Positions 6,505 to 18,072 are shown, counted from the first letter of the stretch. The stretch: 22,862 nt of DNA from Planctomycetota bacterium (GCA_036479435.1 JAZGFI010000075.1:1-22862), one strand, 5' to 3'. A program made the numbers and translations. The notes: generated by a model from the letters alone, not told the origin.

Positions 6505-9102
6505 TCAGTGTTTCTTCAGGACTTGTCTTCGGCGCTTGAAGTCGGCGGCCTCAATCTTGTGCACCACATCGCTAATCCCGTCCTTGGCCTCGACCTTGAT
6601 CTCGAAGGAATCGATCGGAGTCACCCGCCTGGAGTCCGAAGACATCGAGTGAGAAGTTTGCTGCAGGTAACTAAAGCGCAAGAGGTAGCGACCGGCTTCT
6701 GGGAATGATAACTCGGCGGCCCCTTTCTCGTCGAGGACGGCCCTCACTTCGGCTGGTTTCGATTCTGCGCCGCCGAGGAAGGCCGAAAGCGTGATGAAGA
6801 GCGGAGCCTGGGGCCAGTGCTTCGGACCCTTGATCTGAAGGTGGACGCGACAAGGCGGGGCGAGCTTGATGGTCCCCGAGCGCAGCGGACCCGGTTTTCG
6901 GTAGGCCCCTCGCTCATCTGCAGAAACGAAGAGGTCGCTAAGGGGAGAAGCTGCGACCAAGGTCATGACGCCCTTGGCATCGGAGTCCGGAAAGTACCGG
7001 CTCTTTCCCATCTCGGTCGCCTGTACTGTTGCGCCTTCGACAGCGCGGCCTGTGGAATCCACAATCTTGAGCCGGGCCGTCCAGATCCTTGCGCCCAGGG
7101 CTACACGCTGGAGCCGCGAGTCCGTCGATTCTCCCTTGGCGTCAATCTCAATGTCGCTGATCTCAAGAATCGGGGGACTTTTCGATCCCCGATGCTGAAT
7201 GCGAATCGTCGCCAGCCCTGGCCGCAAGCCCGACCAGGCCACGCGGTGTGGGTTCGTCCATTGCCCTCTTTTTTCGGAGTGTGGACCGGCGTCAAAAGGG
7301 TCCCAGGCGGCAGGCACTCCCAGCATCAAGATTTCGATCGCCTTCGGGCCGGGGACTCTTCCGACGAAAGTCATGGCGATCCGGCCTCCCCGCGGCATCG
7401 TCAATCGCAATCCCTCAGTTCCCGGCGCAAGCTCTTCGCTGACGAGCGCGGGGAATCCGGGACGTTCAAAAAAAAGGCGAAAGGGCTCATCGACTACTTG
7501 GCTCAAGAGGCGAAACCTACCCTGTTCGTCAACGCGGGCGGCGATGTCGCTTAGGTCTTCGACGCTTCTTGCTTGACCGAGCGCGACGCGAAGCGTGACG
7601 TTCTGAAGGGCTTGACCCGCATCGTCGACGACCAGTCCTGCCGCTAAGACCGGAAGCTCCTGAAGGACCAAGTCACCGAGGTCGACGCGCGCCGGGAAGG
7701 TGTCGTGCTGCGGCAAAAGGGCCTCCGTACCCCCGCGATGCCCACCGGCGAACCCGGTTTCGATACGCAACGTGGACTGCGCCGCCCGAAGGAGACTGTC
7801 CTCGCAGCCGATTCGGATGAATCCAACAGCATCCGTGCTGCGTATCCCAAGGTCGTGATGGACATCGTGGTTTTTGCCGCCGAGGCCTCGCAAGAGCAAA
7901 TCAGTATGGGCCATGGGCTCGCCCTTGGTATTGAGCACCCGGGCCGTCAGTGTCGATAGCGCTGCACCCAGTTCAAGCTGGTGACGGACCTTGCCTCCAC
8001 TATTCACGGGGCCGTCCAAAACGACGCTGTGGTGTTCACAGCTCTTGTCGGTGGGTCCAACGCATACCACAAATCTCAAGCCCAACGGCAGGTCATCAAA
8101 GCGCACTTCGCGTTGGGGGGTAATGCGCATCCAGGTTGGCCCGTACTCGCTGTTATCTGCAGCAAGAGCGCGCAAAGTAAGAACGACGGTTTTGTCCTTG
8201 GTGTTTTCGGGACCAACCCAACTCAAGATCATGGATGCTCCGCGCGGAAGGCGATGCACGGGAACGGCGTCTTCTGGACGAAGTGGTCGCGCGGTGATCG
8301 GCTGCGGACTGTAGCCCGGGAGCACAATCGAAAATCGTGCATGTGATGACGCGTAGCCGTAGTCCGGTTCGAAGAACCACGCCACTCCATCCTGGTCAGT
8401 TCGCGAGACCATGCGGTCGTAGAATACTCGGGGGTTTAGGTTCGTGGATTGCAGCGTGACGTCCAAACCCTCGCGAGGCTTGCCATCGGCACCTGCAATC
8501 TTGAGCGCATACTGCCGCGACTTGAGCAGTTCGTACTCGACAACCTGTCCAGCATCGTCGTTGAAATAGACCTGTTGCGGGGGCAAATACCCTTCATGCG
8601 CTGTCGCCGCGACTTGGCCTTTGCGCCAAAACCGCGGCAAGGGGCAGTAGCCACGTTCATCCGTCTCGAAGACATCGCCGTACTGAGTGGCCAGGATCAG
8701 AAAGTGGTCGGCCGTGGTCGCTTGATGGTCAAGCGCTTCGCGCGCGGCGCCCGCGTAGGGCAAAAAAGCCACGACCGCTCCGGCGACCCCGCGCTGCCCG
8801 GTGGGATCGAGAATCCTCAATATCGGCCCCCCACGATCCTGAACGACATCAATCCAATCGTCGGGGAACAGCCGCGCGCTGCGGGCGGACTCGAGTTGTC
8901 TGGCACTGAGAGTTCGAGTGCGCCGATGGCCTCGCTCCCCGCTGCGGTCTCGGGGCTTTTCGAATTCATGTTGGTTTTTCGTCTTGGGCGCTAGCCGGTT
9001 TGACGATTCGCTTTCATCATCCGCAGTGATCCACCCAAATAGCCCCAGGCCCCAAAAGGCCAAGCCAATGATGAGCGCGGTGATGAAATGGCGTGCCTGC
9101 AT
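6505..9102 (-). CDS. Membrane-anchored exported protein with repeated carboxypeptidase-regulatory-like beta-sandwich domains; function unknown
   Basis: 865-aa ORF with an N-terminal hydrophobic segment. Recurring G-x-V-x-D-x-x-G-x-P/A...T-D-x-x-G patterns (ARVLNTKGEPM, AGLVVDDAGQAL, KIVDSTGRAVEGATV, TDQDG, TDERG). Confidence 0.75.
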   Translation of the reverse strand: MQARHFITALIIGLAFWGLGLFGWITADDESESSNRLAPKTKNQHEFEKPRDRSGERGHRRTRTLSARQLESARSARLFPDDWIDVVQDRGGPILRILDPTGQRGVAGAVVAFLPYAGAAREALDHQATTADHFLILATQYGDVFETDERGYCPLPRFWRKGQVAATAHEGYLPPQQVYFNDDAGQVVEYELLKSRQYALKIAGADGKPREGLDVTLQSTNLNPRVFYDRMVSRTDQDGVAWFFEPDYGYASSHARFSIVLPGYSPQPITARPLRPEDAVPVHRLPRGASMILSWVGPENTKDKTVVLTLRALAADNSEYGPTWMRITPQREVRFDDLPLGLRFVVCVGPTDKSCEHHSVVLDGPVNSGGKVRHQLELGAALSTLTARVLNTKGEPMAHTDLLLRGLGGKNHDVHHDLGIRSTDAVGFIRIGCEDSLLRAAQSTLRIETGFAGGHRGGTEALLPQHDTFPARVDLGDLVLQELPVLAAGLVVDDAGQALQNVTLRVALGQARSVEDLSDIAARVDEQGRFRLLSQVVDEPFRLFFERPGFPALVSEELAPGTEGLRLTMPRGGRIAMTFVGRVPGPKAIEILMLGVPAAWDPFDAGPHSEKRGQWTNPHRVAWSGLRPGLATIRIQHRGSKSPPILEISDIEIDAKGESTDSRLQRVALGARIWTARLKIVDSTGRAVEGATVQATEMGKSRYFPDSDAKGVMTLVAASPLSDLFVSADERGAYRKPGPLRSGTIKLAPPCRVHLQIKGPKHWPQAPLFITLSAFLGGAESKPAEVRAVLDEKGAAELSFPEAGRYLLRFSYLQQTSHSMSSDSRRVTPIDSFEIKVEAKDGISDVVHKIEAADFKRRRQVLKKH

Positions 9103-9213
9103 GCCGATGGGCTGTCCTGACCGTTGAAGGATTGAATCGTCATCCTACCCGACGCAAAAAAGAGTGCGAAACCGTCTCTGGTTTCGCACTCCTCGTTTGG
9201 GCCAGAAAGGTGG

Positions 9214-10323
9214 CTATCCGATGGCGGCGATCATGACCTCGAGTCGGGCTTTGATCGGGAGTCCCGCGGTCTTTTCCAGCAGGGCTTCGAGCTTCTTTTT
9301 CTGCGCCGCCAGTTTCTTCTTGTTCATACGGGCGCAAACATTGCAACCAGCTTGCTTGTGATCGTGCCCTAGGCGCTTGCAGTTCTTGCAGGGCTTCATC
9401 TTGTCGAGATGTTTTTGCACCTTGTCGAGCTTCTTTTCGATCTCGAGGGCGGCTTTGAAGTCATCGGAGCCCTTGAGTTCGACGAGCTTTTCGGTGACGG
9501 CAGGTCCCAGAGTGGTCCTGGATAGTTCCTTTTCGAGTGACTTCAGCTCTCGTTGGGCTCGCGACGGGTGTTGGCCCATGGCGTTGTCAATGTCCGCCAG
9601 TCGGCGGTCACGCCAGGACTCGACGGCATTCAACAGACGGTCTAAATCGCTGCGCAGCTCATCCGAAGTCCTTTCGTCGGCGAGTTTCTTCTCGATGGTC
9701 TTAAGGGTCGCGTTGAGTTTCTTGGGGCTGGCGATTTGGGCCGCCAGCTTGGGCGCGGCCTCAAACTTTTCTTTCCCGAGGTCGATCGAACGTGCGCGAT
9801 CGAGGAGCTTGTCGACCCATTCGATGAACTTGAGCCCGTCACCCTCGTGGTAGTCACCACACATGTGGTGGTGAGCGATCTTGCCGCGGTGGTCAAAAAC
9901 TATGTAGTAGGGAACGTAGCCGCTGCCCTTCACTTTTGGGTGACGGCCTTGTGATGTCACCGTGAAATTCGGGGTTTTGGCGGTAACTCCTTTGGACTTG
10001 ATGTAGGAAACGACTTCGGACTTGGGGTTGCTCTGGCAATGGGATGCCAGCAAATGAAAAGGACGTCCTTCGAGTCTCTTGGCCAAACTGACCAAGTGCG
10101 GGGTGATCGCGTGGCAACCCACTCAGCTTCCCCAGATCTCCATCAACACGACCTTGCCGACCAAGTCGCGCTTGTCGATTTGTTTGCCGTACCAATACTC
10201 ACCCAAGCTGATGTCGTTGATTGACTCGCCAATCGCGGGATCGTTCTGAGCCCAGGTCGATGGCAGGGTTGACCCAAGGGTCAGCGCGCTCGCCAATAAA
10301 AGTGCGAGAGGGGAAAAACGCAT
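9214..10323 (-). CDS. Putative selenoprotein (369 aa with UGA read as Sec): signal peptide, TlpA/thioredoxin-fold domain with UxxC, coiled coil, CxxC..CxxC tail
   Basis: ORFs 10123..10323 and 9214..10122 abut in frame across one TGA (10123-10125), giving DLVGKVVLMEIWGS-U-VGCHAITPHLVSLAKRLEGRPFHLL. This matches the TlpA pattern GKVVLxxFW..CxxC...PHL. GAGG RBS lies before ATG 10323. Confidence 0.82.
10078..10096 (-). promoter_or_regulatory. Candidate bacterial SECIS hairpin for UGA 10123-10125
   Basis: CTTGGTCA-GTT-TGGCCAAG, an 8-bp stem with one G-U pair. The loop starts with GU, 34 nt after the UGA. Confidence 0.4.
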
Positions 10324-10434
10324 GTTCGATTTCCTCGTGCTTTGAATTCGAAAAATCAGGGCCGGGGCTTCCAGGTTATCTGGAGTTTTGGCCTCGGTCC
10401 ATGATGAGGTCTGGAAAGACGTCCCTGGGCGAGA

Positions 10435-11118
10435 TTAGTTCAGCGAAGAATCTTCGAGTTTTCCGTCTCGGAGCTCGAGCCGGCGGGGGGCGCGAGCGGC
10501 CAGCGTTGGGTCGTGCGTCACCACAATAAGCGTGCGGCCCTGCTGGGGCAGCTCAGCGAGGAATTCGGAGACCAATTCAGCTTGCTCGGGGTCGAGATTC
10601 CCGGTCGGTTCATCGGCGAGGACGATTTCGGGGTCGTTGGCGAGGACGCGAGCCAAGGCGACGCGCTGCCGTTGGCCGACACTCAGCTCAGACGGTTTGT
10701 GATTGCCGCGGTCGGCGAGACCGACTTTGGCGAGGAGTTCTTCGGCCCGCGCCCGTTGGCGTTCGTTGGACCATCCCTTAAGCCACAACGGCAGTTGGAT
10801 GTTTTCAAGCGCGCTCAAATAGGGCAGGAGGTGAAAGGATTGGAAGACGAAGCCGACTTTTTCTTGTCTGTACGCCGCTCTTCGCGCGGCGGACTCCGCA
10901 TAGAGATCCTGGTCATCGACGACAACCTTGCCACTCGTGGGCGCCAGCATGCCGCCAAGTAACAGCAGCAGCGTGCTCTTGCCGCTACCGCTGGCACCGA
11001 CAATGGCGAGGTGATCGCCCGCGGCGATCTTAAGGTCACATGGTTTAAGAGCTTCGACGACGTCGCCCCGGCGGCAGCGAAAAGTCATGGCCGTAGCTTC
11101 CAATCGTAGTTCGCTCAT
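10435..11118 (-). CDS. ABC transporter ATP-binding protein, LolD/MacB-type
   Basis: GASGSGKS Walker A, GFVFQSFHL Q-loop, LSVGQRQRVALAR signature, LADEPTGNLD, VTHD. ATGA overlap with the permease. Confidence 0.96.
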   Translation of the reverse strand: MSELRLEATAMTFRCRRGDVVEALKPCDLKIAAGDHLAIVGASGSGKSTLLLLLGGMLAPTSGKVVVDDQDLYAESAARRAAYRQEKVGFVFQSFHLLPYLSALENIQLPLWLKGWSNERQRARAEELLAKVGLADRGNHKPSELSVGQRQRVALARVLANDPEIVLADEPTGNLDPEQAELVSEFLAELPQQGRTLIVVTHDPTLAARAPRRLELRDGKLEDSSLN

Positions 11119-12329
11119 TCGTCGCGTAGGGCCCTGGCGGGGTCAAGATGTAGAGCGCGCCAAATCGGCCAAAGACTGGCGAGAGCAGTGATGCCGACCG
11201 CGAGGAGCAGGGCGAGCGGCAACAAATCCCAGCGCAGCGGCACCATGACTTGGGCGAGGCGTGGCCCCAAAGCGGCGGCCAAGCCGACGCCGAGCAGCCA
11301 ACCTAGCAAGCCGCCGCTCAAGGCAATCAGAAGGGCCTTGGCCATGAACAACTTGGCAAAGAGCGACGCCGGGGCGCCGAGTGCTGACAACATGCCGAGT
11401 TCGCGACGGCGTTCGCGCAAGTTTGAGAGCATCGTCGCCAAGATGCCGGCACCGCCGAGCAATAAAGCGAGGCCCGACAACAGCCAGGACAAACCCTGCA
11501 TGGTGCGGTTGGTTTCGATCTGAGTCTCGACGATCTGCAAGACGGTCACGACGCGGGTTTCGGGGAGGAGTTTCTCCAGGCCTTCACCGAGACCTTTTGC
11601 GATTTCTCGACAACAGCCGACAATCTCAATTGCATTGATGACTTCGCCCGCGCCCGCGATTTCTTGCACGGTGTGCAAGTGCGCGAAGACTCGGGAGTCA
11701 TCGACGGTGCCGGTGACGGGGAGGATTTCGAGCACTTTGAACTGCCGCCCACCCAGCTCGATCTCGGATTCAGCCTTCCAGCCGTAACGCTGGCTAAGGT
11801 CGGCCCCGACCAAGACCTCGTCGGCGGCAAGGGTGTCGATGATGCGCCTGCGGACGGCGGTTTCTGGGAGCTTGGCGGGCACTGTTTCGCTGTCAGGGCC
11901 GCAGCCTTCCGGTGGGCGGGCAAAGACACCTGCCCCCTTCCAGGTGGCTTTCGCGGCAAATTCGCGTTGAGGCAAGATGCCGGTGAGGGTGACCTTCGCG
12001 TCGCCAAAGGCCACCGGGATGGAGAGTTTGGGCGAGACGTTGTCGAGACCCTTTAGGTCTGAGAGCGCAATTCTTGCGACGTAGGATTCGGGCATGACCG
12101 AACCACCGAGGTCGGCGGAGTAATAATCATCGACGGCGGTGCCGGGTGGTAAGACCAAGATGTTGGCGCCGAGGCCGTCGAGCTTGCGCGCGACGTCCGC
12201 TTCCGAGGCCTGCATCACCGAGCGCACGGTCACCACAAGCGCGACCCCTAATCCCACGGCCATCAAGGCGGTGAGAAAGGGGGATTTGCGTTCGCTGATT
12301 TCGCGGGTCACGAGCGTCGTGAGGCGCAT
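11115..12329 (-). CDS. ABC transporter permease, MacB/FtsX (LolC/E-like) family
   Basis: N-terminal TM, LGANILVLP, large periplasmic domain, ERRRELGMLSALGA, three C-terminal TMs, LDPARALR. Contains GCG and GCC cysteine motifs. Confidence 0.93.
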   Translation of the reverse strand: MRLTTLVTREISERKSPFLTALMAVGLGVALVVTVRSVMQASEADVARKLDGLGANILVLPPGTAVDDYYSADLGGSVMPESYVARIALSDLKGLDNVSPKLSIPVAFGDAKVTLTGILPQREFAAKATWKGAGVFARPPEGCGPDSETVPAKLPETAVRRRIIDTLAADEVLVGADLSQRYGWKAESEIELGGRQFKVLEILPVTGTVDDSRVFAHLHTVQEIAGAGEVINAIEIVGCCREIAKGLGEGLEKLLPETRVVTVLQIVETQIETNRTMQGLSWLLSGLALLLGGAGILATMLSNLRERRRELGMLSALGAPASLFAKLFMAKALLIALSGGLLGWLLGVGLAAALGPRLAQVMVPLRWDLLPLALLLAVGITALASLWPIWRALHLDPARALRDE

Positions 12330-12359
12330 GCGATGATCTTCTCGATGTGGGTGCTGAAG

Positions 12360-12398
12360 TCTCCCGGTACCCGGGAGAGTCGGACTATTTACAGTCCG
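12360..12398 (-). promoter_or_regulatory. Two tandem hairpins after the TGA-TGA; candidate SECIS element(s)
   Basis: Minus strand: CGGACT-GTAAAT-AGTCCG (12381-12398) and TCTCCCGG-GTA-CCGGGAGA (12360-12378). Both loops start GUA and neither has a U-tract, so they are not terminator-like. Confidence 0.45.
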
Positions 12399-13287
12399 GG
12401 ATCGCTCATCAGGGTGCGGCGTATTTGGCGGTGATCGCCAAGAGTAAGTCTTTAGTCACCTTGCCGGTAAGGCGCCCGAGTTCAGTGCCAGGAGGGGCGA
12501 GGACGAGGGCGGTTGGACAGGGAAGTGCGATGAGGGTTCCCTGGGCTAAGGCGACGTCAAAGTCTGGGCCAAATCGAAACTGCTCAAAGAAATCAGACCC
12601 TTTGGCCTGTTCCGCGCCAATGTTGACTCGAGCCAAGTTCGCGGAAGCCTCGGCATCCGCGAAGAGGGCCTCGATTCCCGTGACGTTTTCCATCGGATCA
12701 TGGGCGTAGCTTGCGAGCGCTCGCATGTCGACGATGACCAGCTTGCCCGCCTGAAAAGCCTCGAGGACTTTCGCGTGGGCCGGGCCGATAAAGGCCGTGT
12801 CCAACTCGTCGAGATCAAAGTCACCATCTTCATCGGCGAGAATCGTCTTCGTGATGGCGCCACTCGGCGCGATGACCATCACCACCGGCATGGGCATGCG
12901 CGCGAGATCCAACTTGCGGATTACAGGGGCTTGTCCCGACAAAGTCAGATCCACGGCCTGAAACTCGGCCTTGTGTTTGGGGTCGGCGGCCACTTCGCGC
13001 AAGGATTCCAACAAGTCGGCATCGAGGGTCTCGGCGTCTTGGTGGAAAAGTCCGACGAAGAACTTTTTCTTCGCGTGGGTCGCCTGCATGAGCTCCATGC
13101 CGTTCTCTCGATCTTCACTGCCCTTAGCCACTGGAGTCTCGACCGCGGAGGCGGTCGGCGGGGCTTTGGCAACTTTTTGTGGCGATGATGGGCTGCACCC
13201 CGCCAGGGTCGCGAAGACCAAAGTCGCAAAGATGATGCCGAGCGCTGGCGCTTGCTGCCAGCGTCTTGAAGGGGCTGCGTCGTTCAT
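12385..13287 (-). CDS. Lipoprotein with two thioredoxin-like folds, partner of the ABC exporter; probable C-terminal tandem Sec-Sec (300 aa with readthrough, 292 aa if stopped at 12409)
   Basis: Lipobox LAGC and two similar halves (VVMVIAPSGAI / ALVLAPPGTEL). The 3' end reads GCC GCA CCC TGA TGA GCG ATC CCG GAC TGT AAA TAG = AAP-U-U-AIPDCK-stop. The CDS itself is secure; the readthrough is inferred. Confidence 0.75.
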
Positions 13288-13371
13288 ACCTTCACCATCG
13301 GCAATTCGGGGGCTGACGACAAGTTTCGGGTGGATTCCGCACGAATTCCTGGGCCATGACCTCTTGCTGTC

Positions 13372-13950
13372 TTAGAGCGAAAGGCTCGGAACGTCCCAGG
13401 TCTCGGGCAGGCAAATGGGAGAGGCGATGACGACACTAATATCGGGCAAGGCGTCAAGAGCGGCCCTAAGGGCCTCGGCGCGGGCCTCATCGAGGTCGGC
13501 CAGGGGCTCGTCCAAGAGCAGTAGTTCCGGTCGCAACACCAATGCCCTAGCCAGGGCGACGCGCCGGATCTCGCCGCCGCTCAGGGTGCGCGACGAGCGC
13601 CTCAACAGATCTTTCAGCTCAAAGCGTTCGACGGCTTCGTCAATTCGCGGCTGACTCTCATTCGCTCGGATGCCGTGAGCCTTCAAACCGTAGCTGAGAT
13701 TGCTGCGCACATCGCCGCGAAACAAAAAGGGGCTTTGGTGAACAAAAACGCGCGCCTTTTGGTGCGCTTCAATCTTGACTTGACCTTGGGAGGGCACATC
13801 GAGTCCCGCCATCACGCGAAGCAGGGTCGACTTCCCCGAGCCGTTTTGGCCACGGATCAAAAAACGCTGGCCCCGCGCCAAAACAAAAGAGTCGAGTTTG
13901 AGAATCTCGTGGCCGTTGCGAGTCAGGCGAAGGCCGGTAATCTCAATCAT
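13372..13950 (-). CDS. tupC: Tungstate ABC transporter ATP-binding subunit
   Basis: True start is probably ATG 13950 (MIEITG, ATGA overlap with tupB) rather than 14157. Motifs GQNGSGKS, VHQSPFLF, LSGGE, LLLDEP. Follows tupA and tupB. Confidence 0.88.
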   Translation of the reverse strand: MIEITGLRLTRNGHEILKLDSFVLARGQRFLIRGQNGSGKSTLLRVMAGLDVPSQGQVKIEAHQKARVFVHQSPFLFRGDVRSNLSYGLKAHGIRANESQPRIDEAVERFELKDLLRRSSRTLSGGEIRRVALARALVLRPELLLLDEPLADLDEARAEALRAALDALPDISVVIASPICLPETWDVPSLSL

Positions 13951-14648
13951 GATTTCGCCTCCCGGTCGCGCTCGAAGGAAAGCAAAACCAAGATGCTGGT
14001 GACGCCGAGGGAAAGCAGCAGCAACAAAAAGCCCATGGCTAGTCCGCGGCTGTACTCGCCGCGGCTTGACTCTAGGACAATCGAACCCGCCAAGGTACGC
14101 GTACGGCCCGCGATGTTGCCGCCGACCATCACCGCCACGCCGAGTTCCGTCATGCAACGCGCCAGCGCGGTCAAGACGCCGAGCAGAATGCCCGTGCGGG
14201 CTTCCGACAAAAGTGTGAGGGCGTGGCGCAACTTCCCCGCCCCCAAAGTGCGCGCGGTTTCTGAGGCGCGGGGATCCAAAGCGGACACCGCCCCTTGGGT
14301 CAGCGAAAAAGTGATCGGAAGGGCGAGCAAGAACTCGCCCAAGATGATCGCCCAGGGGGTGTAGATCAGCTCCAACCCACCCAAGACTCCGCCGCGAGCA
14401 AAAAAGGAATAGCCGAGGATTCCGATAAAGGCGGTGGGGAAGGCCATGCCGGTCCGACCGAGCAAGATCAAAAGGCGGCGACCGACGAAGCGTTTGGTGG
14501 CGACAAATGTCCCCAGCGGAATACCGACCATCGCGGCCAAAAAGACCGCCGACCCGGAAACGAATAGGGTGCGGCCCGCGGCGTTCATGACCACGGGATC
14601 TTGATCGATGAGAAGCCGGAAAGCCTCGCGAATGCCGTCTGCGAACAT
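13947..14648 (-). CDS. tupB: Tungstate ABC transporter permease
   Basis: Hydrophobic protein with ETARTLGA EAA-loop and the TupB-type ELGVAVMVGGNIAGRTRTL motif. Confidence 0.92.
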   Translation of the reverse strand: MFADGIREAFRLLIDQDPVVMNAAGRTLFVSGSAVFLAAMVGIPLGTFVATKRFVGRRLLILLGRTGMAFPTAFIGILGYSFFARGGVLGGLELIYTPWAIILGEFLLALPITFSLTQGAVSALDPRASETARTLGAGKLRHALTLLSEARTGILLGVLTALARCMTELGVAVMVGGNIAGRTRTLAGSIVLESSRGEYSRGLAMGFLLLLLSLGVTSILVLLSFERDREAKS

Positions 14649-15497
14649 CTATCCGGCCTTCGGCGTCAAGGTCTTAAAGACGCGCACGCCGCCGACTTCG
14701 TAGTTGCGGATGATGTCTTGAGCCTCGGGGCCGATAAGGAACTCGGCAAATTTCTCCGCGAGCTTCACTCCTGCGGCGGGGCGACGATCCGGATTCACGC
14801 GAATGACCGAATAGGGATTGATCAGATTGGCACCGCCGGACACCAACTCAACGAGATCGAGGCGGTTTGCCACCCGGGCGAAGGTGCCGCGGTCGATGAG
14901 CAAGTAACACCTCAGTTCGTGCGCCATTTCCGCGGTGGCCCCCATGCCTCGGCCCGATTCGATGTACTCCGACCAAGGGCTGTAACCATCGACGAGCTTC
15001 CAAAGCTGCGCTTCGCGTTTGTGGGTACCACTGTCGTCGCCACGGCTGATAAAACGCGCACCTTGTTGGCAAATGCGGCGCAGGGCGTCCGCGACCTTCA
15101 TGCCTTTGACGCCCGCCGGGTCGTTCTTCGGACCGGCGATGAGGAAATCGCTTTGCATGACGGCCCGGCGCCCAAGGCCATGCCCGGCCGCCACAAAGGC
15201 TTCTTCGGCTTCGCGAGAGTGAGCGAAAACCGCATCAACGTCGCCGTTAGCGCCGAGCTTCAAGGCAGCCCCGGTGCCCACCGCGAGGACGATCACTTCG
15301 CAGGACTCACTTTTTTCAAAGAGGGGGATGAGTTGGTCGGCGATCCCGGAGTCACGCATCGAGGTGGTGATGGCGATGCGCAGGATCTTGTCATCGGCCC
15401 CGTCCTGGCAGCCCCAAAGGCAGCTCAGAACGAGGCCGACAGCGGCAGCAAAGCCTAAATGCCGGATTTCAAAAGCATCTCGTCGAAGGACTTGCAT
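14649..15497 (-). CDS. tupA: Tungstate-binding lipoprotein of ABC transporter
   Basis: Lipobox LWGC; ITTSMRDSG (TTTS-like), AVGTGAAL, FISRGDDSGTHKRE, GRGMGAT, DRGT, NPYSVI. The start overlaps the aor 3' end by 43 nt and is uncertain. Confidence 0.92.
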   Translation of the reverse strand: MQVLRRDAFEIRHLGFAAAVGLVLSCLWGCQDGADDKILRIAITTSMRDSGIADQLIPLFEKSESCEVIVLAVGTGAALKLGANGDVDAVFAHSREAEEAFVAAGHGLGRRAVMQSDFLIAGPKNDPAGVKGMKVADALRRICQQGARFISRGDDSGTHKREAQLWKLVDGYSPWSEYIESGRGMGATAEMAHELRCYLLIDRGTFARVANRLDLVELVSGGANLINPYSVIRVNPDRRPAAGVKLAEKFAEFLIGPEAQDIIRNYEVGGVRVFKTLTPKAG

Positions 15498-18019
15498 ACC
15501 CGTGAGTGCACCTCTTCGAAGAACTCGACCGTGTTGAAGTGTTCAAGATCAACTTTGTCGTACTTGCGGTGAACTTCAAGGGGCATCCGGTAGTCCTCGG
15601 GGCTAAAGCCCTGAGTCCTTTCCAGTTTAAGACCGCGGAGGAAGCAGCGCTTGACCGTCTCGGTGAGCTGCTCTTCGCTGATCTCAAGGCCGGTCATGAG
15701 CTGGATGGCTTCCGCCATCTTCTCGTTGGGCAGGGCCGCAAACTTGCAGATGCCAATGACGTCGTCGCGCATGATCGAACAGCCGCGCTCAGTGATGGCT
15801 TCAACCCAGTAGTCGGCGCCCGCTTCTTTTTCGAAAACGTAGAGCAAATAGGTCTTCATCGACATGTGCCCGCCGGCCAAGGCCCAGGGATAGCCGGGGT
15901 TGAACTGCGGTAAGTAGGCGGGGAACTCGACGCCCTTGCAGTGCATGGCGTAACCGGTTTCACCGAGCGCTTCCGAAAGACGTTTCACGCCCTGGCCGAG
16001 CAACGGGAGTTTGCCCTTGGCCATTTCGGTGATAGCCCGTTGCGCGCCTTCGTAGTTGCCGTACTCGATGTAGTCCGGGATCAAAGACGGCTCGCCCGCC
16101 TCTTTTTTGCGCTTGTTGTACTCCATGGCGTAAGAGATCGTGACGCCGCAAGAGATGGAATCCATGCCGTAGTCGTCGACCATGTCCACCAAGTGAACGG
16201 CTTGATGGATGTCGAAAATCCCGATGTTCGAAGACATCAAGTTCAAGGGCTCAAAATCGAGCTTCGCGTGGAACTTGCCGGGCTTTACTTTGCCCTTGAC
16301 CTCTGTGCGGTCGTAGACGTTTTTGTGACAGGAAATGCCGCAGGCGTAGCAAGCTTCGTCTTTGACCATCAACTCGCCCGCCGCTTCGACGTTGGCGCGG
16401 TACATCGGCACAGAAACATCGGTGCCGGTGGGGTTGAAGTTGTTTTCAGGCATCGCGTGCAGCGGGTTCAAGGCCGTCATGTTGGCCCAAGTGCCGCCGC
16501 CGCCATCGCCTTTTTTTGCGTCGCGAAAGCGCTGGCTTCCGGGCCCGCGCGCGACTTCCATGTTGATCTCTTTGAGGCCCGCGACTTTGACGCCCGGCTT
16601 GGGGTCTTTCATGTCCGCCACGATGGCGAGCAAGTTTTTGGAACCCATCAAACCGCCCATGCCCCCGCGCCCCGCAAAGCGCGACTTCATGTCGCCACTT
16701 TTGAGCTGGTTGAGGGTAGAGAGGCCGATCGCCGCGAAGCGGACTTCTTCGTAGTTCTCGCCGGCGGTGCCAATCGCCGCGAAGTGAGCATCGGGATACT
16801 GGGTGTAGAGGTGTTGGATCTTTTGATTGATCGTCATTCCCTGCAAGTGATGCGCGGGCTTAAACTGGAACGTCGGTTGGCCGTTGGCTTCGTCGTGAGT
16901 GATGTGCAAGTAGACCGGCATGATGGCCTGGCCCGTGAAAATAACTTCCTCCACCCCGAGGTGCCGAAGCTTGGTGCCGAATTTGCCACTGCCGGTCGAC
17001 CACATCGCCGAGGGCTTGTCACTGAGGGAGGCCTTCAGCGGTGAGTAACCGTGGAAGTAGGTGCGTAGGCCGGTCATGAACTGAGTGCCCGACAAAATGC
17101 CGAGGTTCATGATGAGCGGCGCGGCTTTGTCGTAGGGATCTTCAACCTCGTAGTCTTCGAGAATCTTGAATCCGCGGCCGATGCCGCCCAAGACATCTTC
17201 GTAGTCGGCACACTCGACCGTGTCTCGCTTGACGAAATAGGTGCTGAGGTCGATCCGGTACTGTTTGATGCTGAATTCGCGGGGTGACTTGAGATCAGCC
17301 GCCGCGACCGGAGCGGGAGCGGATTTCTTGGCCGGTGCCGCTTCGGATTTCTTAGCAGGTGTGGCGGCGGGCTTTTTCGCCGGAGCTGCCCCCGGCTTAG
17401 CGGCCGGAGTCGTCTCCGGCTTGGCGGCTGGTTTCGCGGTCGCTTTGTTCGGGGCGGGCTTTTTAGGCTCCGGCTTTTTGACTTCAGGTGTTTTGTCGCT
17501 CGGCTTCTCGACGGCCGCCACCGGCTTTGCCGCCGTCGGGGTCTTTGACGTGCGCTTCGTGGTTTTTCGGTCCTCGGAGTCGCCTGTCGCCGTGGCTGGT
17601 TTCTCAGCGGGCTTCTTCTCCGGGTCCGGGGCCTTTTGCGAAATGATCGTCTTCGGCGGTTCTTCGACCGCTGTTGGCATTCGCTCGGCGCTGGTTTTGG
17701 CGACTTTCTTTTTGGCCACCTTCACGACGACTTCGATTTTGGTTCGACCCATCTTGATGACCAAACCGTTCTTCAATGGATGACGATTGCCTTTCCCGAG
17801 AACCGGGCCTCCGACGATGACCGTCTTGTTGGAGCTGCCGACGTCTTCGATTTCAAGGCCACCGCTTCCCTCCAAAATCACGGCGTGGCATCCGGAAACA
17901 TTCTGGTCATTAACGCAGAGTTGGTTGCTGGGGTCGCGCCCGATGGTGGTGCCAGCTTTGATGGCAACGTTGCGGGGGGCTTGATCGGGTTCGTGGAGGC
18001 GAAAGGTGTATTCAGACAT
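15455..18019 (-). CDS. aor: Tungsten-containing aldehyde:ferredoxin oxidoreductase family enzyme with N-terminal FHA domain and Lys/Pro/Ala-rich linker
   Basis: FHA: TIGRDPSNQL..VSGCHA..IEDVGSSNKT. AOR: AGRGGMGGLMGSKNLLAI, PENNF, CYACGISC, DDYGMDSIS (DxxGxD), KGVEFPAY, GGH, DDVIGICKF (fourth Fe-S Cys). Confidence 0.92.
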   Translation of the reverse strand: MSEYTFRLHEPDQAPRNVAIKAGTTIGRDPSNQLCVNDQNVSGCHAVILEGSGGLEIEDVGSSNKTVIVGGPVLGKGNRHPLKNGLVIKMGRTKIEVVVKVAKKKVAKTSAERMPTAVEEPPKTIISQKAPDPEKKPAEKPATATGDSEDRKTTKRTSKTPTAAKPVAAVEKPSDKTPEVKKPEPKKPAPNKATAKPAAKPETTPAAKPGAAPAKKPAATPAKKSEAAPAKKSAPAPVAAADLKSPREFSIKQYRIDLSTYFVKRDTVECADYEDVLGGIGRGFKILEDYEVEDPYDKAAPLIMNLGILSGTQFMTGLRTYFHGYSPLKASLSDKPSAMWSTGSGKFGTKLRHLGVEEVIFTGQAIMPVYLHITHDEANGQPTFQFKPAHHLQGMTINQKIQHLYTQYPDAHFAAIGTAGENYEEVRFAAIGLSTLNQLKSGDMKSRFAGRGGMGGLMGSKNLLAIVADMKDPKPGVKVAGLKEINMEVARGPGSQRFRDAKKGDGGGGTWANMTALNPLHAMPENNFNPTGTDVSVPMYRANVEAAGELMVKDEACYACGISCHKNVYDRTEVKGKVKPGKFHAKLDFEPLNLMSSNIGIFDIHQAVHLVDMVDDYGMDSISCGVTISYAMEYNKRKKEAGEPSLIPDYIEYGNYEGAQRAITEMAKGKLPLLGQGVKRLSEALGETGYAMHCKGVEFPAYLPQFNPGYPWALAGGHMSMKTYLLYVFEKEAGADYWVEAITERGCSIMRDDVIGICKFAALPNEKMAEAIQLMTGLEISEEQLTETVKRCFLRGLKLERTQGFSPEDYRMPLEVHRKYDKVDLEHFNTVEFFEEVHSRVCKSFDEMLLKSGI
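17290..17720 (-). repeat. Low-complexity PAKK/PAAK-type peptide repeats in the FHA-AOR linker (approximate bounds)
   Basis: KPAAKPETTPAAKPGAAPAKKPAATPAKKSEAAPAKKSAPAP. Confidence 0.85.
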
Positions 18020-18072
18020 CAAAAGTCTCTATCGCTCGGGGTGCGTGCCGGGTTGGATCTGAGGTTGAGGCG

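Follow-up and report, generated by a model that had tools for sequence, protein, structure and literature searches.

A putative tandem selenocysteine pair in the C-terminal tail of a planctomycete lipoprotein encoded beside a MacB-type permease

Whether two adjacent UGA codons are both read as selenocysteine (Sec) is the question raised by a gene in a 22,862-nucleotide stretch of DNA from a Planctomycetota bacterium (GCA_036479435.1 JAZGFI010000075.1:1-22862; this whole stretch is referred to as the window). On the minus strand, an open reading frame (ORF) for a putative lipoprotein starts with ATG at 13287-13285, runs for 292 codons and meets TGA at 12411-12409 and again at 12408-12406. The same frame then continues as GCG ATC CCG GAC TGT AAA, or A-I-P-D-C-K (12405-12388), and closes with TAG at 12387-12385. 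An earlier reading of the sequence (the original prediction) had described a TGA-TGA followed in frame by AIPDCK and TAG, and had taken both UGAs to encode Sec; the minus-strand coordinates bear out the description. Both UGAs are probably read as Sec, giving an adjacent Sec-Sec pair. This view, which supports the original one, draws on the Cys columns of homologues on which the two codons fall, on a conserved P-x-C-K behind them, on the Sec genes of the host and on downstream hairpins resembling the Sec insertion sequence (SECIS). The features on which the argument turns are the following.

12388-13287, minus strand: coding sequence of the putative lipoprotein (P0001) through two UGAs, 300 residues; the table-11 ORF ends after residue 292.
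13195-13287, minus strand: predicted signal peptide with lipobox L28-A29-G30-C31, from the translation (...FATLVFATLAGC, followed by SPSS...); a hydrophobic stretch precedes the lipobox.
12406-12411, minus strand: UGA-UGA, proposed Sec293-Sec294, in columns aligned to Cys in homologues.
12385-12405, minus strand: tail codons A-I-P-D-C-K and UAG; the family tail, CC-x2-P-x-C-K, has the same P, C and K.
12381-12398, minus strand: hairpin H1, CGGACUG-UAAA-UAGUCCG, a candidate SECIS with its base 10 nucleotides (nt) after the first UGA and 7 nt after the second.
12360-12378, minus strand: hairpin H2, UCUCCCGG-GUA-CCGGGAGA, a candidate SECIS in the 3' untranslated spacer with its base 30 and 27 nt after the first and second UGA.

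A HMMER search retrieved 222 family representatives at E <= 1e-3. Nearly all full-length members carry a Cys-rich C-terminal tail (e.g. GKCCDDPNCKH, SSGCGPGGCGPGGCK and CCPGGKCGPNGC), and three or more tail Cys are present in 107 of the 131 representatives having a recognisable PP motif. The original prediction had ascribed a Cys-rich CC-x(n)-C tail to planctomycete proteins of this type, and homologues encoded upstream of MacB-like permeases do have CC-x4-C or another Cys-rich sequence as their C-terminus. In a 114-sequence alignment, which was made with C for U and to its disadvantage eases the alignment of those very columns, 108 of the 113 other sequences have Cys in the column of U293 (the rest being one Ser and four gaps, the latter contributed by the four closest relatives) and the U294 column is Cys in 80 of the 113 homologues, with 28 gaps. 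Both TGAs thus lie on the CC columns once homologue C-termini are aligned, which is the comparison that had been proposed for them. The AIPDCK tail is also conserved, with Pro at P297 in 75, Cys at C299 in 106 and Lys at K300 in 30 of the 113, and UUAIPDCK, when U is read as C, agrees at 5/8 positions with the commonest tail, CCDDPNCK. An in-frame UGA aligned to Cys between conserved flanks, as looked for in a selenoprotein gene, is accordingly indicated by the sequence comparison.

A position-specific scoring matrix (PSSM) built from the 36 of 146 family representatives with CC-x4-C-x, from which the lipoprotein gene itself was left out, is free of the alignment bias. The lipoprotein tail came first among 1473 read-through tails of TGA-ended coding-like ORFs of the host genome, with a score of +2.5 (runner-up -1.7, null mean -22.2, standard deviation 5.6), and the pattern U[U/C]xxPxCK was found in just one of the 1473, namely the lipoprotein gene. 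These results bear on the possibility that TGA-TGA is a true double stop, in which case the protein would have 292 residues and no tail, AIPDCK would be left over from a lost tail or due to chance, and H1 and H2 would form an intercistronic RNA element, between lipoprotein and permease genes, for stability or processing. This is considered rather unlikely. The top-ranking tail agrees with the family motif at P, C and K, and the two TGAs fall exactly on two Cys columns. Moreover, the tail Cys are kept by over 90% of family members, and to lose such a tail but retain a conserved docking surface, described below, would be unusual. Other TGA-TGA genes of the host with a Cys-containing read-through (on contigs C130, C217, C27 and C30) were inspected and look like ordinary stops or start overlaps.

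The closest relatives enter the argument on both sides. Four homologues (P0003, P0007, P0004 and P0005, with 50, 40, 37 and about 30% identity) form one clade with the lipoprotein, with SH-aLRT support of 100 in a quick tree, and the annotated proteins of all four end in ...AP, the residue before the first TGA column. The shared end residue favours a double stop. The explanation preferred here is that gene callers stop at a Sec codon, and the age of the clade points the same way: a tail silent since the clade ancestor, at 30-50% identity, should have decayed, yet it still reads xxPxCK-stop, which argues against an ancient truncation. The original prediction had named homologues ending in AAP without an aligned Cys pair as the observation that would speak against it, and this holds for the four closest relatives only and fails for the wider family. 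An alignment-based search confirmed no relative among 141 genome-contig and 305 metagenome-contig pattern matches, and among 23 genomes of the host's class a match was found in the host's own genome only. If the tail is translated, standard gene calls cut off a functional tail in at least the lipoprotein's clade. Elsewhere in the family, the annotated ends of P0032, P0072, P0069 and P0107 lie directly before a conserved tail Cys column (e.g. ...CSSCGPAG and ...LPKPSS), and these proteins may, to judge from their sequences, be further Sec-truncated annotations.

A sequencing or assembly artefact, in which the real codons are TGT or TGC or a frameshift has occurred, is hardly credible. The genome is a draft of 299 contigs, which leaves some room for error. 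However, 1101 bases (12250-13350) are letter-identical in contigs of two runs, one of them (X2) possibly the source of the window DNA and the other (X3) from another study, at depths of 75.6 and 8.1. The same letters in the contigs of two studies mean that TGATGA is no one-off assembly error, and identical errors in two adjacent codons would be unlikely. The gene caller behind the database entry P0002 also stopped at the same TGA. Two further runs (X7 and X8) hold parts of the stretch only, with the TGA site outside their coverage.

The host appears to be equipped for Sec decoding. In its genome, one contig (C117) bears selA (526 bits), tRNA-Sec (67 bits) and selD (372 bits), the last with one in-frame TGA of its own, and another (C237) bears selB (323 bits); all four are above curated cut-offs. 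The genes for which a genome check had been suggested are thus all present, and the Sec-decoding gene set is, as judged by these profile matches, complete. Planctomycetes equipped with a full Sec machinery are described in PMC4807772. One in-frame TGA is present in 13/23 host matches to Redoxin (PF08534), and F-W-G-x-W-U-G-P-C is common among host Redoxin-type TGA ORFs. Several have, besides this motif, a near-identical SECIS, ACGAGC-GGUC-GCUCGU, 25 nt past the UGA. Thioredoxin-like selenoproteins are thus unusually numerous in the host (e.g. C290:105-464, C170:21941-22297 and C263:3875-4267). The second selenoprotein that the original prediction had placed 2 kb away does exist in the window as a probable one.

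9217-10323, minus strand: second probable selenoprotein (P0006), exported and Redoxin/TlpA-like, with W-G-S-U67-V-G-C and its TGA at 10125-10123.

The P0006 UGA is followed by an 8-bp hairpin with a GUU loop, the base of which is 26 nt downstream. The C-terminal half of P0006 is long, helical and Lys-rich, with a CKNCK...CNVC cluster. Its gene comes directly after an ABC (ATP-binding cassette) ATPase gene and is outside the three-gene unit that is conserved in three other genomes.

The two hairpins downstream of TGA-TGA had also been predicted, and without a U-tract. They were found at 12398-12381 and 12378-12360. H1 has 7 bp if its closing G.U pair is included, or 6 bp with a GUAAAU loop if that pair is left open, and it overlaps the Cys codon, the Lys codon and the UAG stop. 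H2 has 8 bp and a folding energy of -13.3 kcal/mol. Folding of the 70 nt from the first UGA gave z = -2.86, with 1/200 shuffles as good. Neither H1 nor H2 was called in a terminator scan of 9000-13600, which indicates that no U-tract lies behind them and that they are not terminator-like. Host hairpins were compared under one definition (at least 6 bp, at most -7 kcal/mol, GU at the loop start, within 66 nt of the UGA), with a reference set of 14 thioredoxin-like Sec ORFs hand-picked from 114 host motif candidates. Such a GU-loop hairpin follows the UGA in 11/14 of the reference ORFs vs 41/1470 ordinary TGA-ended ORFs, and two separate ones are found in 7/1470 of the latter. The loops of the reference elements are GGUC, GGU, GUU and CGUGU; those at the lipoprotein gene are GUA and (G)UAAA(U). 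At the same position, in the spacer between lipoprotein and permease genes, a strong hairpin is present at 3/25 other loci, one of which is a locus with a tail TGA of its own (L023, considered below). That the remaining 22 lack one speaks against an intercistronic element that would accompany a double stop. The SelB-SECIS mechanism of bacteria is summarised in PMC10778597. H1 and H2 are, in their sequence and predicted folding, compatible with SECIS function.

Several observations weigh against the reading of both UGAs as Sec, and some of these also favour a double stop. TGA-TGA is by itself ordinary, ending 30/1473 TGA-ended coding-like ORFs of the host. In the host references (11 ORFs, P0006 and selD), 13-26 nt separate the UGA from the stem base, and H1 (10/7 nt) and H2 (30/27 nt) are just outside that range, H1 with the first UGA and H2 with the second coming nearest to it. 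The GGUC loop found in 6 reference elements is in neither H1 nor H2. Rfam gave no match over the whole window at gathering level, and an E-value scan of 12300-12450 returned a chance long non-coding RNA match only. The tail that follows UGA-UGA is just six residues long. The four closest relatives were compared as annotated proteins. Finally, SelB acting twice in succession, at one codon and then at the next, is not known to have been demonstrated and would be expected to be inefficient.

In a further alternative, a single UGA is recoded: either the first encodes Sec and the second stops translation (...AAP-U), or the second is read by a near-cognate Trp or Cys tRNA. In work with E. coli, each SECIS places SelB at a set spacing from a single codon, and RF2 competes at each UGA. 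The second Cys column is also the less conserved of the two. Nevertheless, P-x-C-K is conserved behind the second UGA, which argues that translation passes it, and two separate hairpins are rare among TGA-ended ORFs. The family motif is CC, and Sec is in frequent use among the exported redox proteins of the host. Recoding of a single UGA is, on this evidence, unlikely, and Sec at both positions remains the preferred interpretation.

Sec also appears to occur elsewhere in the tail of this family. At one locus (L023, on contig C9 of genome G119, locus coordinates 2197-2226), from another family of the same phylum, the gene ends DCCPGGI-TGA-AAC-TAG and relatives have CCPGG[SQK]C. A GC-strong 8-bp hairpin (-17.7 kcal/mol) lies 15 nt past that TGA, and a search of that genome for two Sec genes found both, selA (474 bits) and tRNA-Sec (74 bits). 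The L023 homologue is a probable CC-x4-U selenoprotein. When 150 further genomes from the same order were searched with its protein, no orthologue was found at E <= 1e-8. At a metagenome locus (L121, about 2414-2470) the tail is SADSG-TGA-GGGGCAPSGCK-TGA. The in-frame TGA takes the place of the first tail Cys, and a U-x4-C-x4-C selenoprotein is probable from the sequence. L023, L121 and the lipoprotein clade are three separate lineages of the tree, the exact placements being modestly supported (81-86). In-frame tail TGAs are rare, with 1/28 other genome loci and 1/73 metagenome loci. The pattern suggests that tail Cys residues are most likely interchangeable with Sec, at any of the three positions, in Sec-using lineages. 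The most likely interpretation of the comparison as a whole is a new selenoprotein family with a Sec/Cys-interchangeable tail, the gene in the window being one with an unprecedented adjacent Sec-Sec.

What kind of protein bears this tail can be approached from its predicted sequence and structure. The lipobox consensus is [LVI][ASTVI][GAS]C, and L28-A29-G30-C31 matches it by eye; P0001 thus has a predicted signal peptide that ends in a lipobox, as a lipoprotein should. An AlphaFold model (pLDDT, the predicted local distance difference test, 82; pTM, the predicted template modelling score, 0.74) has two tandem thioredoxin-fold domains, and its tail is of low confidence (pLDDT 52 over the last ten residues). 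The best Foldseek matches to the model are QSOX1 Trx1-Trx2, Eps1p, P. furiosus PDO and PDI, with E from 3.5e-5 and 43 matches at E <= 1e-3. A profile search against the PDB gave weak PDI matches (E 0.0024). The modelled fold is accordingly that of two tandem PDI-like thioredoxin domains. There is no CxxC motif in the 300-residue sequence or in the family consensus, and the lipoprotein, which has the fold without CxxC, would thus fall outside the classical thiol-disulfide oxidoreductases. Searches of Pfam and NCBIfam assigned it to no family at their cut-offs, the sole match being to Thioredoxin_6 at E 0.12. The family is hence an unannotated one of predicted two-thioredoxin-fold lipoproteins with a Cys- or Sec-rich tail.

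The genes downstream indicate a partner.

11115-12329, minus strand: MacB/FtsX-type permease, 404 residues, with Pfam FtsX and MacB_PCD.
10435-11118, minus strand: ABC ATPase, LolD/MacB-like by profile matches.

The permease gene starts at 12329, and the lipoprotein gene is the first of a three-gene unit (lipoprotein, permease, ATPase) found in the same order in three other genomes. A permease gene is directly downstream of the lipoprotein homologue at 25/29 genome loci, and a lipoprotein homologue is upstream of the permease at 73/80 metagenome loci. This conserved co-location with permease and ATPase genes is what would be expected of a periplasmic partner. The closest permease relative for which DNA is available, at a metagenome locus (L063, 71% identity), has no lipoprotein gene upstream, and the pairing is therefore not universal; a TetR-like regulator and a DUF2202-like ORF lie upstream of it on the opposite strand. 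By sequence, only the FtsX transmembrane part of the permease matches solved MacB, LolF and LolC. Its periplasmic part contains a pair, Cys239-Cys240 (nt 11615-11610, minus strand), that is invariant in 24/24 syntenic loci and in 66/66 database homologues, within the motif E-[IV]-[VMI]-[GA]-C-C. Cys143 is kept in 21/24 syntenic sequences. No comparable feature is known in MacB or LolC.

Modelling supports binding of the lipoprotein to the periplasmic domain of the permease. The complex was predicted from permease residues 30-275 and lipoprotein residues 60-292, with the tail left out, and gave an ipSAE of 0.74 (0.75, 0.73 and 0.74 in separate runs), against 0.00 for the best of 3 controls. The ipSAE mark is reached by 116/157 solved complexes and by 2/215 mismatched pairs, counts that apply only roughly to the present model, for which custom alignments were used. 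The runs had at least 75% of contacts in common and a partner pLDDT of at least 79. The predicted interface is formed on the lipoprotein by the near-invariant residues 129-133, 145-150, 178-181 and 264-269, and on the permease by segments 228-229 and 253-256, which flank the CC pair.

In the proposed mechanism, host SelA, SelB, SelD and tRNA-Sec would recode both UGAs, steered by H1, H2 or both, and the product would be an exported 300-residue lipoprotein with two thioredoxin folds and a flexible tail, P-U-U-A-I-P-D-C-K. It would dock on the co-encoded permease, which is of the type VII ABC kind, by setting its most conserved surface against the periplasmic domain, and the Sec-Sec...Cys tail would act as a mobile chalcogen arm beside the invariant Cys-Cys. 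Starting about 25 residues past the APPG contact, the tail would be able to reach the permease CC, with which it would exchange either a disulfide or diselenide or else a soft metal or metalloid. The arm could thus relay redox equivalents, by exchange of a vicinal diselenide or a selenenylsulfide, or it could carry the metal or metalloid, and the lipoprotein would accordingly hold a vicinal diselenide or a soft-metal site. Judged by selenoproteins in general, the acceptance of Sec in place of each of the three tail Cys makes redox activity or nucleophilic chemistry likelier than a purely structural role. Where recoding fails, e.g. when selenium is scarce, the tail-less product of 292 residues would be made. 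The boldest form of the proposal is that the locus encodes the first natural bacterial Sec-Sec, by UGA-UGA with one SECIS-like hairpin per codon, and that a swinging arm bearing a diselenide or, if Cys299 takes part, a Se-Se-S triad trades redox equivalents or metal with the CC of an undescribed MacB-type class, in a new family with UU-x4-C, CC-x4-U and U-x4-C-x4-C tails; taken together, these claims have about an even chance of being right.

Other genes of the window lie upstream of the lipoprotein gene. An aldehyde:ferredoxin oxidoreductase with AFOR_N and AFOR_C and an N-terminal FHA fusion is encoded at 15455-18022 (minus strand). Genes of a tungstate/molybdate-type ABC uptake system come after it in the same orientation (PBP_like_2, 14649-15497; permease, 13947-14648; ATPase, 13372-14157).

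The locus would matter in several respects. In the current view of bacterial Sec insertion, each UGA needs a SECIS hairpin at a short and constant spacing, and adjacent Sec codons therefore test the mechanism directly: they pose the question of whether one SelB-SECIS complex serves two codons or whether two hairpins are pre-loaded. A vicinal diselenide, if real, would add to the motifs that nature uses for redox chemistry or metal binding. The lipoprotein family and the CC permease also suggest that a type VII ABC machine works through thiol or selenol chemistry.

No description of natural adjacent Sec-Sec or of UGA-UGA recoding in bacteria was found in full-text searches of a literature collection from which subscription journals are mostly missing. 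Among known systems, the nearest functional analogies, unrelated in sequence, appear to be the C-terminal arm of mammalian thioredoxin reductase and SelL. The Gly-Cys-Sec-Gly arm of the reductase resembles the proposed tail in being a flexible C-terminal segment with adjacent chalcogens and a Sec few codons before the stop; its eight-membered-ring bond shuttles redox equivalents to another site. It differs in having Cys-Sec, in being part of a eukaryotic flavoenzyme with its SECIS in the 3' untranslated region, and in showing no homology, whereas Sec-Sec is proposed here on a thioredoxin-fold lipoprotein. SelL of aquatic eukaryotes is reportedly a thioredoxin-like selenoprotein with U-x-x-U for which a diselenide was proposed (Shchedrina et al. 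2007). It likewise has two nearby Sec in a thioredoxin-fold protein, but these are two residues apart at the CxxC position of a eukaryotic protein, while those proposed here are adjacent and in a tail outside a fold that lacks CxxC.

Bacterial redox families with interchangeable Sec and Cys include the TlpA/Prx-like W-U-G-x-C proteins and FrhD, which share a UGA on a conserved redox Cys, a downstream hairpin and a patchy exchange of Sec and Cys. In FrhD, different Cys of one motif are replaced by Sec in different bacteria, as noted in PMC1976440. These proteins have one Sec per motif, in contrast to the two adjacent codons of the lipoprotein, whose family is outside Pfam and NCBIfam. Type VII ABC systems (MacAB, LolCDE-LolA and FtsEX-EnvC) share the FtsX-type permease, the large periplasmic domain, the LolD-like ATPase and the co-encoded periplasmic partner, but the periplasmic CC is invariant here, and a partner with two thioredoxin folds and a Cys/Sec-rich tail is in no solved system. 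The C-terminus of MerA and the proteins MerT and MerF offer a comparison for the metal option, as adjacent thiols on flexible segments pass a soft metal between proteins. They are not homologous, there are no mer genes in the window, and a metal role for the lipoprotein is speculation. Set beside these systems, SECIS-directed recoding and the exchange of Sec and Cys are of an already known kind, and what is new is the adjacency, a possible two-hairpin arrangement and the CC-permease ABC context.

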